A stretch of 64,000 nucleotides of DNA from an uncultured virus (IMG/VR IMGVR_UViG_3300017940_000146) (lineage: Duplodnaviria > Heunggongvirae > Uroviricota > Caudoviricetes), in IMG/VR virus record IMGVR_UViG_3300017940_000146; one strand, 5' to 3'. Below are positions 15,820 through 60,525 of this stretch, one piece after another. The notes below the pieces were generated by a model. It was not told where the DNA came from and searched no databases. It worked only from the letters and a program-made list of their open reading frames with translations. Numbering within the stretch: the stretch's first letter is position 1; the number at the start of each line of letters is the position of its first letter. Made by a program: the position numbers and the translations under genes.

Positions 15820-15845
15820 TCAATTGCCACTGGTTTTAAAATTCC

Positions 15846-15888
15846 GGGGAATTAGGGACCTTAAAATCCTTAATTCCCCATTTTTTTG
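15846..15888 (+). terminator. Rho-independent terminator after gp23
   Basis: ggggaattaggg...tccttaattcccc followed by T7. Confidence 0.85.
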
Positions 15889-15890
15889 TC

Positions 15891-15919
15891 TTGACAAATC
15901 CTTTAAAATATGATATAAT
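15891..15919 (+). promoter_or_regulatory. Sigma70-type promoter
   Basis: TTGACA-17-TATAAT. Confidence 0.85.
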
Positions 15920-40979: not shown

Positions 40980-40981
40980 AG

Positions 40982-41058
40982 TTTTGATGTTCCATACGGA
41001 CGAGGCTGAGGCTGGTAGCCAACCCAGGTGGGAAGCGAGCGGTAATGGAATATCAAAA
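40982..41058 (+). ncRNA. Candidate structured RNA of unknown class
   Basis: 14-bp closing stem ttttgatgttccat/atggaatatcaaaa around a GC-rich core with two small hairpins. Confidence 0.5.
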
Positions 41059-41066
41059 TAAAATGC

Positions 41067-41094
41067 TTGACAATTTTTTAAAATATGCTATACT
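41067..41094 (+). promoter_or_regulatory. Sigma70-type promoter
   Basis: TTGACA-16-TATACT with extended TG. Confidence 0.65.
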
Positions 41095-42442: not shown

Positions 42443-42462
42443 AGGGGAATTAAAATTCCCCT
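42443..42462 (+). terminator. Hairpin after membrane gene
   Basis: aggggaatt-aa-aattcccct. Confidence 0.6.
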
Positions 42463-43112: not shown

Positions 43113-43190
43113 TCACTAGATGCCGAGGTGGTCGAGGCGCTAGGTCTGCAAAACTGGTCTTAGAGGGTTCAAGTCCCTCCTGGTGGTCCA
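43113..43190 (+). tRNA. tRNA-Cys(GCA) with irregular anticodon stem
   Basis: CTGCAAA loop; U73; TTCAAGT T-loop; CCA; stem pairs well only with one bulged G. Confidence 0.75.
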
Positions 43191-44915: not shown

Positions 44916-45140
44916 ATGCCATATTACGATTACGTGTGTAGTGAATGCGGAAAGACTTTTGAAATCTTCCAAAAGATGGATGAAGAAGCCAGAGTTTTGA
45001 CCCACGGTGATTTAGCAGAAAATTATGAATTGACAGAAAGTAGATGCCGCGGCCACTTGGAACGGAAAGTTTCTACTTCCGCATTGAAATTTGTGGGCCC
45101 TGGATTTTATGTGAATGATTATCCGAAAAAGAAAGTTTAG
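44916..45140 (+). CDS. FmdB-family zinc-ribbon protein
   Basis: MPYYDYVCSECGKTFE...F.GPGFYVNDY. Confidence 0.85.
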   Translation: MPYYDYVCSECGKTFEIFQKMDEEARVLTHGDLAENYELTESRCRGHLERKVSTSALKFVGPGFYVNDYPKKKV

Positions 45141-45215
45141 GGACCGTAGCTCAATGGTTAGAGTTCTTGCCTGTCGAGCAAGATGTTGACGGTTCGAATC
45201 CGTTCGGTCCCGCCA
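45140..45215 (+). tRNA. tRNA-Asp(GTC)
   Basis: cttgc-CTGTCGA-gcaag; GTTCGAATCC; G73, CCA. Confidence 0.92.
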
Positions 45216-45287
45216 TAATTTCGGATCTTTAAATACAAAAGGTAAGGGAAGGAGATTTATTTTTAAAATAAAAGGAAAAAGTTATTA

Positions 45288-45364
45288 GCCACGGTAGCTT
45301 AATCCGGGAAAGCGGTTGACCTGTAATCAACAGAGAGGGAGTTCGATTCTCCCCCGCGGCTCCA
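45288..45364 (+). tRNA. tRNA-Thr(TGT) with C33
   Basis: gttga-CCTGTAA-tcaac; GTTCGATTC; CCA. Confidence 0.88.
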
Positions 45365-45367
45365 GTT

Positions 45368-45470
45368 TGGTATGGGTACGCCTAGCATACCACAAGAAGA
45401 TGGTCCTTGAGCAAGATCATCTCGCCTCCTTACAGGGTTCTTTCGCGTGAGCAAAGAATCCACTAGGCGT
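45368..45470 (+). ncRNA. Candidate pseudoknotted RNA of unknown class
   Basis: Three hairpins plus 8-bp complementarity acgcctag/ctaggcgt between first loop and 3' end. Confidence 0.6.
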
Positions 45471-45483
45471 CTTTAAAAATCAC

Positions 45484-45512
45484 TTGACAAGCGGCCTTAC
45501 ATACGCTATAAT
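45484..45512 (+). promoter_or_regulatory. Sigma70-type promoter
   Basis: TTGACA-17-TATAAT. Confidence 0.85.
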
Positions 45513-45529
45513 TGTAATTGAGGTTGAAT

Positions 45530-45715
45530 ATGTCAGACTATAAATATGAAATTCAAATGGAAGCAGAACGTCTTGCTGAAGAACGTTTTGGTGTAGATTT
45601 TTACGATTTGCCTGAAAATGAACAGTATAATGTTTTCCTTGATGCTGAGGTTAATTGGTCGGAAAAAAAGGCCGCTCAAGCGGAAGCTGCATATGACCGT
45701 TCACAAGGATTTTAA
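45530..45715 (+). CDS. Small acidic hypothetical protein
   Basis: GAGG RBS; behind promoter. Confidence 0.6.
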   Translation: MSDYKYEIQMEAERLAEERFGVDFYDLPENEQYNVFLDAEVNWSEKKAAQAEAAYDRSQGF

Positions 45716-45716
45716 A

Positions 45717-46901
45717 ATGAAAACATTTCCAACATTATATCATAAAAGTAAAACGGGAGCTTTAGTTCAATGGGATATTTGGACAGAAGGTGATACTATT
45801 ATTACCCGCCATGGACAAATTGGTGGTAAATTACAACTTTCACCCAAAAAAGCTACTCCAAAAAATTTTGGTAAAGCAAATGCCACAACTGCGGAAGAAC
45901 AAGCAATTTTGGAAGCTCAAGCAATGTGGACTTTTAAACGGGAACGAAAATATTCTGAAACTAAAGAAGGTGCTAAAGAAGAAATCTTTTTACCTATGTT
46001 GGCACACGATTTTCATAAAAAGAAAGGCCGCGGAATCGTTTATCCATGTGACCTCCAACCAAAATTGGATGGTGTTCGTGCAATGGCATATTGGGAAGAT
46101 GGCCGTGTAGTATTAGGGACTCGCGGTGGTAAAGAATGGACGGCTCCTAAACATATTATTGAAGAACTTGAAAAAGTAATGCCACAAGAAATGGTTCTGG
46201 ATGGTGAATTATATGTTCATGGAGTTGATTTTGAATCTCTTACTTCATGGGCAAAGAAATATCATGAAGGTGAAACAGAACAATTAGAATATCATGTATT
46301 TGATATGCCAATTAATGAATTGGGGAAACGTGATATTTGGAAGAATCGCTTGAAAAATCTTGAAGCATTTTTTCATAAATTAAACCCTACTAGTCCAAAA
46401 TATGAAAGTGCATATTTGGTTTTAGTACCAACTTATATTGTAAATCAAGTAGTTAAATTACCAAAATATTATGCAGGAGTTTGTAGTGCATGTTTACAAC
46501 CTACATATGAATATGATGAAATTTTTGATTTTGAAAAAACATTTGTGGAACAAGGATATGAAGGATGTATTGTCCGTAATTGGGATGGTGAATATTTATT
46601 TGGCCACCGATCAAGCGATATTCAAAAAGTAAAATCTTTCCAAGATGCAGAATATAAGGTAGTTGATTTCGAACATGGTGTTGGTAAAATGGCTAATTCA
46701 GCCATTTGGATTTGTGAAACAAAAGATCATAAGAGATTTAAAGCTACACCTAAAGCATCGGCGGCAAAACGTGAAGAATATTACCGAGATGGAAAGAAAT
46801 ATATTGGTAAGTTGGTGAAAGTAGCATTTCAAAATTTAACAGCAGATGGTATTCCAAGGTTTCCAAGGGCACTTGGATTTCGGGATAAGAAGGATATGTA
46901 A
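45717..46901 (+). CDS. ATP-dependent DNA ligase
   Basis: PMLA, QPKLDGVR, LDGELY, YHVFD, GYEGCIVR, KVK.F.DAE, PRFP. Confidence 0.95.
   Translation: MKTFPTLYHKSKTGALVQWDIWTEGDTIITRHGQIGGKLQLSPKKATPKNFGKANATTAEEQAILEAQAMWTFKRERKYSETKEGAKEEIFLPMLAHDFHKKKGRGIVYPCDLQPKLDGVRAMAYWEDGRVVLGTRGGKEWTAPKHIIEELEKVMPQEMVLDGELYVHGVDFESLTSWAKKYHEGETEQLEYHVFDMPINELGKRDIWKNRLKNLEAFFHKLNPTSPKYESAYLVLVPTYIVNQVVKLPKYYAGVCSACLQPTYEYDEIFDFEKTFVEQGYEGCIVRNWDGEYLFGHRSSDIQKVKSFQDAEYKVVDFEHGVGKMANSAIWICETKDHKRFKATPKASAAKREEYYRDGKKYIGKLVKVAFQNLTADGIPRFPRALGFRDKKDM
46444..46508 (+). repeat. 65-bp exact direct repeat, copy 2, in frame inside DNA ligase
   Basis: Identical to 33277-33341; both encode QVVKLPKYYAGVCSACLQPTY. 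Confidence 0.95.
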
Positions 46902-59303: not shown

Positions 59304-60525
59304 AGCAGCAAACAAAATTCAACGGGTAAAGAAACCAAGAGCACCTAAACCTGTAAGAGAAAAGAAGGTACGGGAAAAGAAAGTAAAGCAAACGGCCAAT
59401 ATCGCCTTTTTTGAAAAGATAGCCAAAGCAACAGGAAATGACCTTGCTCAAGCGGCTTCAAATGGAATTATATCAGGCGATGTAACGGGTTGGATTGATA
59501 CGGGTGTATATCTATTGAACGCTCAATGGAGTGGTTCATTATTTGGTGGAGCACCTAACAACAAGATTGTTGTTTTCGCAGGACCATCTGCTACAGGTAA
59601 GACCTATTTCATTTTAGCATTGGTTAAACATTTCTTGGATACGCACCCGGGATCGGGGATCATGTTCTTTGAAACTGAAGGTGCGATTACAAAAGATATG
59701 ATGGTGTCAAGAGGAATTGATGTATCTCGTGTATATGTGATTCCTATCGAAACGGTTCAAGAATTCCGGACTCAATCACTTAAGATGTTGCGCGTAGTGA
59801 AAGAAACAAAACCTTCAGAGCGGCAAGAATTGATGTTTGTATGCGACTCTTTGGGAAATCTTTCTACACAGAAAGAAATGGAAGATGCTGAATCGGGTAG
59901 TGAGAAACAAGATATGACCAGAACCCGGTTGATTAAATCAGCATTCAGAACTATTACATTGAAAATGGGTTTATTAAATATTCCATTCTTTATTACGAAT
60001 CATGTATATAAGACTCAAGATCTATTTTCTCACACAGTCCAATCGGGTGGCAGTGGGCCACAATATGCCAATTCGCTTTCAGTATTCTTGAGTAAGAGTA
60101 AAGATAAAGAAGGAACTGAAGTAGTTGGAGTTATTTTACACTGTAAGTTAGAAAAGGGCCGCTTGACGAAAGAGAATACATTGATTGATGTATCTCTGGA
60201 TTATGCGGGCGGATTAGATAAGTATTATGGATTACTGGAACTTGGATTGAAGTATGAACTATTCAAGAGAGTAAAAGAGAAGAAAGAGAAAACAGCAACA
60301 GAAGGATTTGCGAAACTGAAAGAAGGTAAAGAGAAAGCAAAGAAGGGTGGTAAAATTAGAATTGGTGATAAGGTAGCAACTGAAAAACAGATCGAAGCAA
60401 ACCCAGAGGTATATTTTACCGATGAAGTGCTGAAGGCGCTTGATGTATTTGCCGGTAAAGAATTCAATTATGGTATGACGGTTGAAATGCCGGAGGAAGT
60501 AGCGAGTGAGGTTGAGGAAGATTAA
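59281..60525 (+). CDS. uvsX: RecA-like recombinase UvsX
   Basis: GPSATGKT, FETE, DSLGNL...KE.ED, DMTR, TNHVY, SGGSG. Confidence 0.95.
   Translation: MARPKKIKAANKIQRVKKPRAPKPVREKKVREKKVKQTANIAFFEKIAKATGNDLAQAASNGIISGDVTGWIDTGVYLLNAQWSGSLFGGAPNNKIVVFAGPSATGKTYFILALVKHFLDTHPGSGIMFFETEGAITKDMMVSRGIDVSRVYVIPIETVQEFRTQSLKMLRVVKETKPSERQELMFVCDSLGNLSTQKEMEDAESGSEKQDMTRTRLIKSAFRTITLKMGLLNIPFFITNHVYKTQDLFSHTVQSGGSGPQYANSLSVFLSKSKDKEGTEVVGVILHCKLEKGRLTKENTLIDVSLDYAGGLDKYYGLLELGLKYELFKRVKEKKEKTATEGFAKLKEGKEKAKKGGKIRIGDKVATEKQIEANPEVYFTDEVLKALDVFAGKEFNYGMTVEMPEEVASEVEED

Follow-up and report, generated by a model that had tools for sequence, protein, structure and literature searches.

We analyzed a 64,000-nt stretch of DNA (the window) that forms part of a 74-kb virus record (IMG/VR IMGVR_UViG_3300017940_000146), and within it a pseudoknotted RNA element of about 100 nt that lies directly behind a tRNA-Thr gene at positions 45368–45470 of the + strand. 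PHROG matches mark the virus as a T4-like myovirus (tail sheath, portal, major head protein, gp43-like polymerase, and UvsX-like recombinase, with further matches to SbcCD-like subunits, clamp loader, RNA ligase, and DNA ligase), and ARAGORN finds 16 tRNA genes in the window, all of them on the + strand. The tRNA-Thr gene (45288–45364, + strand; anticodon UGU, CCA encoded; called by ARAGORN and, with 57 bits, by Rfam RF00005) is followed by a 3-nt spacer, GUU (45365–45367), and then by the element, which forms its 3' trailer and occupies the entire gap between the CCA and an early promoter. Beyond the element, still on the + strand, lie an A/T-rich 13-nt spacer (CUUUAAAAAUCAC, 45471–45483), in which no U-tract was called and which we read as an UP-element-like part of the promoter; a sigma-70-type early promoter, TTGACA-17-TATAAT (45484–45512), that matches the consensus at 12/12 positions; and the first gene of the downstream unit (45530–45715), which encodes 61 amino acids without a PHROG match and has its start codon 59 nt after the pseudoknot. 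The next gene (45717–46901) encodes an ATP-dependent DNA ligase (phrog_114, E = 1.8e-76). The phage was found in 20 peat or wetland DNA runs, and identical copies are present in other IMG/VR and metagenome records. None of the 23 runs listed for it is an RNA run, which counts neither for nor against the element as a transcript. Contigs from four DNA runs were identical across 45130–45560 and thus offer no population variation to exploit.

An initial annotation, made from the window's sequence without database searches, had outlined a GC-rich, pseudoknotted element bounded by a tRNA CCA and the next promoter, and its coordinates for the element hold to the base. Hairpin 1 (P1) is formed by UGGUAUG (45368–45374) and CAUACCA (45386–45392). 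Its 11-nt loop consists of GGU (loop 1, 45375–45377) and, in its last 8 nt, the pseudoknot 5' strand (ACGCCUAG, 45378–45385), with 0 nt between that strand and the 3' strand of P1. This segment, acgcctag in the DNA, is the exact reverse complement of ctaggcgt at 45463–45470, which is the pseudoknot 3' strand (CUAGGCGU); the duplex amounts to -12.2 kcal/mol. Enclosed between the two strands are hairpin 2 (45398–45422), in which 45398–45405 pairs with 45415–45422 (8 bp including G45403.U45417, with the 9-nt loop CUUGAGCAA); a single-stranded segment, CCUCCUUA (45425–45432); and hairpin 3 (45435–45461), in which 45435–45443 pairs with 45453–45461 (9 bp including G45437.U45459) and an inner 2 bp form a gc-GUGA-gc cap in the minimum free energy (MFE) drawing. 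G+C content is 50.5% in the element and 31.9% in the window, the boundaries are the CCA ending at 45364 and the promoter at 45484–45512, and TGAGCAA, which had been noted twice in the element, has no other + strand copy in the 64 kb.

We used the neighboring ligase as bait and obtained 10 viral and 80 metagenome loci. The fold recurs in one lineage among them (loci L022–L026), whose ligase is 74–86% identical to that of the window, whose tRNA-Thr is 86% identical, and whose loci are identical to one another over the region. One copy (c1; L024 807–922) stands 5 nt (GAAAA) behind tRNA-Thr and has a P1 of 8 bp with a 10-nt loop, 6–8 nt of which enter the pseudoknot; behind its pseudoknot 3' strand come A/T-rich sequence and then a promoter with TTGACT. 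A second copy (c2; L024 1068–1128) lies ~260 bp beyond c1 and 1 nt (A) behind an anticodon-less tRNA look-alike (L024 1002–1066; also in L022, L023, and L026). The look-alike is a promoter-driven cloverleaf with a 7–8-bp acceptor stem, a T-arm-like hairpin, a CCA, and a GAAA-capped hairpin where the anticodon arm would be expected (z = -2.98), and in L024 it received no ARAGORN call and no Rfam tRNA match at E ≤ 10. In L023, L024, and L026, c1 and c2 flank an insert of ~260 bp that holds a 10-codon open reading frame (ORF) and the look-alike; the window lacks such an insert and holds one copy of the element, whose sequence is single-copy in the window's phage. The distance from the CCA to the element is thus 3 nt in the window, 5 nt at c1, and 1 nt at c2, and 11–13 nt separate the element's end from the -35 box in the three copies. 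A c2 variant with two 1-nt deletions (L030) was left out of all counts as probably erroneous; its contig also has frame-breaking indels in coding sequence. Upstream of tRNA-Thr, the window has a 72-nt A/T-rich spacer from tRNA-Asp, and L024 has an inserted ORF in that place (~300–720) that looks, by eye only, like an HNH-type homing endonuclease.

The three copies share an H-type pseudoknot in which P1 has 7–8 bp, the second helix has 6–8 bp, and no nucleotide intervenes between them. Loop 1 measures 2–3 nt (GG, invariant in 3/3 sequences, plus 0–1 nt), and loop 3 measures 69 nt in the window, 82 nt in c1, and 27 nt in c2 and carries one or two hairpins, so that the element ranges from 116 nt down to 61 nt, with c2 as its smallest natural form. 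Outside the helices, only the GG of loop 1, a (U)CCA before the pseudoknot 3' strand, and a CCUC(C) in loop 3 recur. The CCUC(C) is part of CCUCCUUA in the window and, in both copies of the relatives, occupies the equivalent position behind the first hairpin of loop 3; it may resemble the 3' end of 16S rRNA. Loop 3 is otherwise wholly different in sequence and length between copies: hairpin 2 is not kept, its place being taken by a different, irregular hairpin in c1 and by none in c2, and hairpin 3 is common to the window and c1, with c2 carrying one short hairpin only. Within L024, c1 and c2 are ~90% alike in the P1-loop segment and again in the segment comprising the pseudoknot 3' strand and the promoter.

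Taken by itself, the window sequence argues weakly against a chance fold. The nested MFE of the element has a z score of -2.19, and 7/200 shuffles fold equally well; hairpins of at least 7 bp whose loop pairs with at least 8 nt downstream number 2 in the window (both strands) versus a mean of 0.33 in 30 dinucleotide shuffles. The real evidence for the predicted fold is conservation with compensatory change in the relatives. The initial annotation had proposed a covariation test of the pseudoknot among homologs as a check; homologs exist, and compensatory changes are present in the pseudoknot itself. In a MAFFT alignment of the three distinct sequences (window, c1, and c2), scored against a structure made up of P1, the pseudoknot, and hairpin 3, standard pairs fill 64/66 pair cells, and seven pairs are changed on both sides: two of the eight aligned P1 pairs, two in the pseudoknot, and three in hairpin 3, where the window and c1 also differ by one A-U/G.U change. 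Pairing fails in two cells: the window lacks the outermost P1 pair, and c1 lacks one pair of the pseudoknot. This combination of pairing and double changes was reached by 0/500 shuffles, and structures slid by 1–3 columns give 0–1 doubly changed pairs. For c2, the nested MFE itself selects the pseudoknot helix, and the nested helix that competes with it in the window's MFE structure (CGCCU/AGGCG) has no counterpart in c1 or c2.

The element's G.U pairs (hairpins 2 and 3 in the window, the pseudoknot in c2) fit the + strand only, so that it is an RNA read in the direction of the tRNAs. The same pairs bear on the proposal that it acts chiefly in DNA; a mobile promoter cassette would then use the inverted repeats as protein operators or as linkers in recombination, and folding of the RNA would be incidental. 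A DNA-level role would suit the duplication of the cassette around an insert in L024, the invariance of the outer four P1 pairs (UUGG/CCAA), and the recombination described for PeSL (promoter-early stem-loop) elements, the stem-loop and promoter cassettes of T4-type phages (PMC2839356). We nevertheless give it very little credence: the G.U pairs would turn into C.A mismatches if the other strand or a DNA cruciform were the functional form, the seven double changes retain pairing across three separate helices, and the element adjoins a tRNA or tRNA-like 3' end in 3/3 cases. We conclude that the element is a real, new, and narrowly distributed RNA motif, for which the covariation is good but thin.

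The narrow distribution follows from searches of several kinds. Among GenBank phages, megablast found no match to the element, and the only matches by blastn (word size 11; 50,697 records) were to the tRNA-Asp portion of the query, in 18 records. A 17-mer of the P1 loop hit six loci in IMG/VR, two from the same phage and four that are chance matches in unrelated sequence, and a degenerate P1-loop pattern hit seven, two from the same phage and five that are G+C-rich with non-complementary arms. In GTDB genomes the degenerate pattern matched at least 120 stretches, at least 27 of them with no more than one mismatch at the three free stem positions; among the matches listed, all flanks were G+C-rich and coding-looking, and no member was recognized there (ARAGORN was not run on these genomes). 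Two tRNA-Thr-based patterns returned 2 and 9 loci in IMG/VR and no new element, and the three IMG/VR loci found by a profile search with the small downstream protein all lack the element. A descriptor scan of 89 tRNA 3' flanks from the window and related phages gave four hits, namely the two known copies and two A/T-rich ones, versus 1.5 expected from shuffles. A relaxed pattern, run on three records (G001, G002, and G006) that took in a 101-kb record of the same phage and a 175-kb record of a 98%-complete relative, found a single copy, in the 101-kb record (G001). These searches thus indicate no further member beyond the window's phage and the L022–L026 lineage.

The element also stands outside the families to which it was compared. 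The initial annotation had called it non-coding and possibly new, with an Rfam search as a check, and in that search no family overlapped it at E ≤ 10 (601 nt searched); on 126 nt, the search gave two chance-level matches only (13.5 and 8.5 bits), and the relatives' copies in L024 likewise matched no family at E ≤ 10. The pseudoknot-containing wcaG RNA was rejected as an identity, with no RF01761 match at E ≤ 10 in the element or L024 and none at E ≤ 1 in this phage's 101-kb record; the positive control, cyanophage syn9, scored 78.6 bits. A degenerate tRNA was rejected as well, given that neither ARAGORN nor the Rfam tRNA model calls the element and that its best local alignment to the 16 tRNAs of the window, a 9-mer in common with tRNA-Asp, is reached by 6% of shuffles and thus not significant (c1 and c2 show nothing comparable). 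Minus-strand micro-ORFs behind the complement of CCUCC are not conserved between copies. Mimicry of an RNase P substrate was considered for the 15–16-bp stack of P1 and pseudoknot, in which the 3' end of P1 reads NCCA, but this CCA is paired and no single-stranded CCA comes after it, and the idea is speculation.

A hepatitis delta virus (HDV)-like fold, including the theta type, is excluded, as the initial annotation had indicated. Such a fold is a nested double pseudoknot built from P1, P2, P1.1, and a P3 hairpin with L3 that stands between the P2 5' strand and the P1 3' strand, with a catalytic cytosine at the first position of J4/2 (PMC10879173). Only 11 nt separate the P1 strands in the window and 8 of these are in the pseudoknot, which leaves no room for P3; J4/2 is not definable because P3 and P4 are missing. 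No HDV-type Rfam family matched at E ≤ 10, and a scan for the HDV-like topology found no arrangement in the window, c1, or c2 (the scan had no positive control). A self-cleaving ribozyme of a new class, which would cut at its own 5' edge and trim the 3' trailer of the tRNA by analogy with what is proposed for theta ribozymes, seems to us improbable. Such a ribozyme would sit in the place where Kienbeck et al. (2024; PMC10879173) put the theta ribozymes, directly 3' of phage tRNAs, and the pseudoknot with its 7-bp P1 at the 5' edge, the invariant GG of loop 1, the (U)CCA before the pseudoknot 3' strand, and the position outside all known families would accord with it. The HDV-like topology is impossible, however, with 8/11 nt between the P1 strands paired elsewhere, and no Rfam ribozyme family matches at E ≤ 10. 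Few unpaired nucleotides are conserved, and the copies show no homology in the loop where a catalytic core would have to lie, whereas small self-cleaving ribozymes have conserved cores. The spacer behind the CCA varies (1, 3, or 5 nt), and P1 begins with U and not with the G.U of HDV-like sites. The suggestion of a new noncoding RNA or ribozyme class therefore stands in part. The lack of a known family and the compensatory changes support a new RNA; nothing about it is ribozyme-specific, hairpin 2 is unconserved, and a new class would rest on three distinct sequences from two phage lineages.

The slot between tRNA-Thr and the downstream promoter is filled differently in more distant relatives, whose ligases are ~60% identical to that of the window: in L011 the promoter comes at once after tRNA-Thr, and in L012 a plain G+C-rich hairpin with a T-rich run, which by its sequence is an ordinary terminator, precedes the promoter. 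Elsewhere in the window, GGGGAATT...AATTCCCC hairpins stand directly before two other consensus-like early promoters, at 15891 and 42462 (window ~15845–15890 and 42444–42461), one of them with a T7 run; this is a PeSL-like arrangement, with a sequence unlike that of the tRNA-Thr element.

Because the equivalent slot holds simple hairpins elsewhere in the window or a terminator in L012, and because T4-type phages are known for PeSLs, we tentatively favor, at a confidence somewhat short of even, the reading that the element makes up the structured half of a terminator/promoter cassette of the PeSL type, a half that has become a pseudoknot, and that it acts in cis to mark an operon boundary and assist processing. 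The element would be co-transcribed with tRNA-Thr, as the 1–5-nt spacing and the lack of a promoter between them suggest. Its compact fold would then delimit the tRNA unit, with read-through attenuated or ended and 3' exonucleases blocked; the tRNA would be freed by an endonucleolytic cut, perhaps of the RNase E type, which the fold would position in the short A/U stretch immediately before P1; the RNA piece left over would have both of its ends locked in helices; and the consensus promoter would restart transcription for the ligase unit. The flanking of a small insert by c1 and c2 in the relative looks, by analogy, like a PeSL cassette event.

Several observations weigh against this reading. 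Consensus scanning called no terminator-like site in the element or anywhere in 45365–45483, where the last helix is followed by CUUUAAAAA and no U-tract, so that we rejected an intrinsic terminator of the usual kind; pseudoknots are not known to be an established type of intrinsic terminator in bacteria. The window's tRNA-Asn runs directly into a promoter without any structure, and insulation is thus not obligatory. A plain hairpin would be enough for a barrier, and selection on two interlocked helices suggests a more specific role. Finally, the comparative base is thin: it covers two lineages with three distinct sequences, of which c1 and c2 are paralogs in one genome, and the seven compensated pairs represent few events.

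In the principal alternative, the element could be a stable small RNA punctuated by tRNAs, analogous to T4 RNAC and RNAD or to small RNAs derived from tRNA 3' spacers, for which the tRNA or its look-alike would provide the processing handle and the pseudoknot would clamp the ends while the loop-3 hairpins act in trans on a protein or RNA. We consider this possible, if doubtful. Both ends of the element are in helices, with P1 starting 1–5 nt past the CCA and the pseudoknot 3' strand as the final structured segment, and the near identity of c1 and c2 in P1 and pseudoknot, next to an entirely different loop 3 (82 vs 27 nt), is the pattern of a scaffold with a payload. In L024, a dedicated promoter drives a unit made up only of c2 and the non-decoding tRNA look-alike, and internal repeats are present (TGAGCAA twice in the window's element, GCAGTAAAG twice in c1). 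T4 itself yields two small RNAs from its tRNA region (PMC3014915). Against it, a search for antisense targets in the window gave nothing above chance (best match 14/15 nt, E = 1.3); hairpin 2 and the loop sequences are unconserved between the lineages, and an Hfq-type terminator tail is missing. For hairpin 2, the two best antisense matches lie within the gene for the UvsX-like recombinase, at 59438–59452 (the 14/15-nt match) and 59580–59589 (10/10 nt, E = 5.3), and both are at chance level.

The start codon that follows 59 nt downstream, beyond an A/U-rich stretch, raises a different possibility: once the tRNA has been removed from a read-through transcript that started at an upstream promoter, the pseudoknot would lie at the 5' end of the ligase-operon mRNA, where it could protect against 5'-end-dependent decay or bind a regulator. 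The model for this is the pseudoknot and A/U-rich operator of T4 gene 32 mRNA, an unusually stable message in whose leader a pseudoknot lies 67 nt before the start codon and is followed by an A+U-rich sequence (PMC3014915). P1 would leave at most 0–5 unpaired nucleotides at such a 5' end. We think that a role as 5' cap or operator has little chance of being correct, given that a perfect-consensus promoter between the pseudoknot and the gene would make the main transcript one without the element. In addition, the downstream genes vary by copy (a 61-amino-acid ORF and ligase in the window, a 10-codon ORF and tRNA look-alike after c1, and a 127-amino-acid ORF after c2), and no ssDNA-binding protein is among the PHROG matches seen.

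A further reading assigns the element a more active part. The tRNA-trailing pseudoknot, placed 1–5 nt behind a tRNA or a look-alike handle, would be one instance of a wider and so far unrecognized viral device that causes the 3' cut of the tRNA, either by self-cleavage or through a helix stack that is accepted by a host tRNA-processing nuclease. We regard this as unlikely. If it were true, the last tRNA of a viral cluster, in phages and giant viruses alike, could be matured without a following tRNA or the host pathway for terminator removal.

Other structured sequences accompany tRNAs in this phage and its relatives. At 40980–41060 of the window, a tRNA-Arg has a G+C-rich structured trailer that begins 2 nt past its CCA (closing stem of ~15 bp, MFE of -29.8 kcal/mol, z = -2.6) and is followed by an 11/12 promoter at 41067–41094; the slot is as in the tRNA-Thr element, the fold is different, and no pseudoknot was detected. 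Directly behind tRNA-Ala (window ~43116–43190) lies a tRNA-Cys(GCA)-like sequence that ARAGORN misses. With the Rfam tRNA model, the corresponding position in this phage's 101-kb record reaches 25.5 bits, under the 29-bit cut-off, and relatives have a called tRNA-Cys behind tRNA-Ala. A permuted, two-piece type transfer-messenger RNA (RF04321) lies near tRNA-Pro both in the window's phage (L236 973–1186, minus strand; 114 bits) and in the 175-kb relative (L231 3192–3467; 97 bits), and in both loci a conserved structured stretch of ~130 nt stands behind tRNA-Pro. Two relatives without the pseudoknot trailer have ~80 nt directly 5' of tRNA-Thr (L011 ~2765–2849 and L012 ~2385–2462) with a closing stem and the shared motifs TAACCGC ... 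TATAA-CTCCTG, which may be another small structured RNA. In a 204-kb marine relative (L233 in G003), tRNA-His, tRNA-Glu, and tRNA-Lys are each directly followed by (T)A/T-N-GAACTGAAG, and for tRNA-His and tRNA-Glu the complement (GTTCAT or GTTCGT) closes off ~80 nt, which makes this a different kind of recurring tRNA trailer.

Non-tRNA RNAs encoded in the tRNA regions of T4-type phages are a long-standing observation, and tRNA 3'-end formation in phage clusters is poorly understood. A pseudoknot that always adjoins a tRNA-type 3' end and a promoter provides a compact, testable object for the study of this process. If the element directs cleavage or termination, the pseudoknot would be added to the signals that set transcript boundaries in bacteria and could serve as a portable part in the design of tRNA arrays; if it is only a decorated terminator, it would be an ordinary cassette with an unusual fold.

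Several known systems resemble the element in part. The theta ribozymes are tRNA-associated, minimal HDV-like ribozymes of gut Caudoviricetes (Kienbeck et al., 2024; PMC10879173). They share with the element a pseudoknotted RNA directly behind a phage tRNA and a proposed role in processing the tRNA 3' trailer, but the element lacks the nested double pseudoknot, P3/L3, and the J4/2 cytosine context, and its long loop is unconserved. RNAC and RNAD of T4 are small RNAs from the tRNA region whose role is unknown (PMC3014915). Like the element, they are structured non-tRNA RNAs encoded with T4-type tRNA genes and presumably released from tRNA transcripts, whereas the element has no sequence likeness to any GenBank phage by blastn.

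T4-like (cyano)phages have an orphan RNA with a pseudoknot in the wcaG motif (RF01761; Weinberg et al., 2010; PMC2864571). Its blocks are compact, at ~30 nt, with a conserved GUUUC...UGG (the pseudoknot pairing being read from the consensus); the element differs in its longer helices, its third loop of 27–82 nt, and its other conserved letters. The gene 32 operator of T4 and T2 offers an H-type pseudoknot with two coaxial helices and an A/U-rich stretch ~60 nt before a start codon (PMC3014915). That knot, however, is compact and belongs to the ssb leader, whereas the element is separated from its gene by a promoter and the downstream genes are unrelated and variable.

The closest parallel in the order of parts is the PeSL, which two reports describe as a stem-loop, an AT-rich region, a strong sigma-70 promoter, and a start codon in T4-type phages, with roles in terminating transcription and in mediating cassette indels and recombination (Arbiol et al., 2010, PMC2839356; Comeau et al., 2014, PMC4122927). 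A PeSL has a simple stem-loop of a G-run and a C-run, whereas the element is a covarying pseudoknot of 61–116 nt with internal hairpins, adjoins a tRNA 3' end, lacks a U-tract, and is single-copy in the window's phage; its terminator activity is putative. In common with PeSLs, the element presents a structure, an A/T-rich stretch of 11–13 nt, a strong sigma-70-type early promoter, and a start codon in that order within a T4-type genome. The repetition of its cassette around a small insert in one relative may be a further parallel, and a plain terminator occupies the same slot in another.

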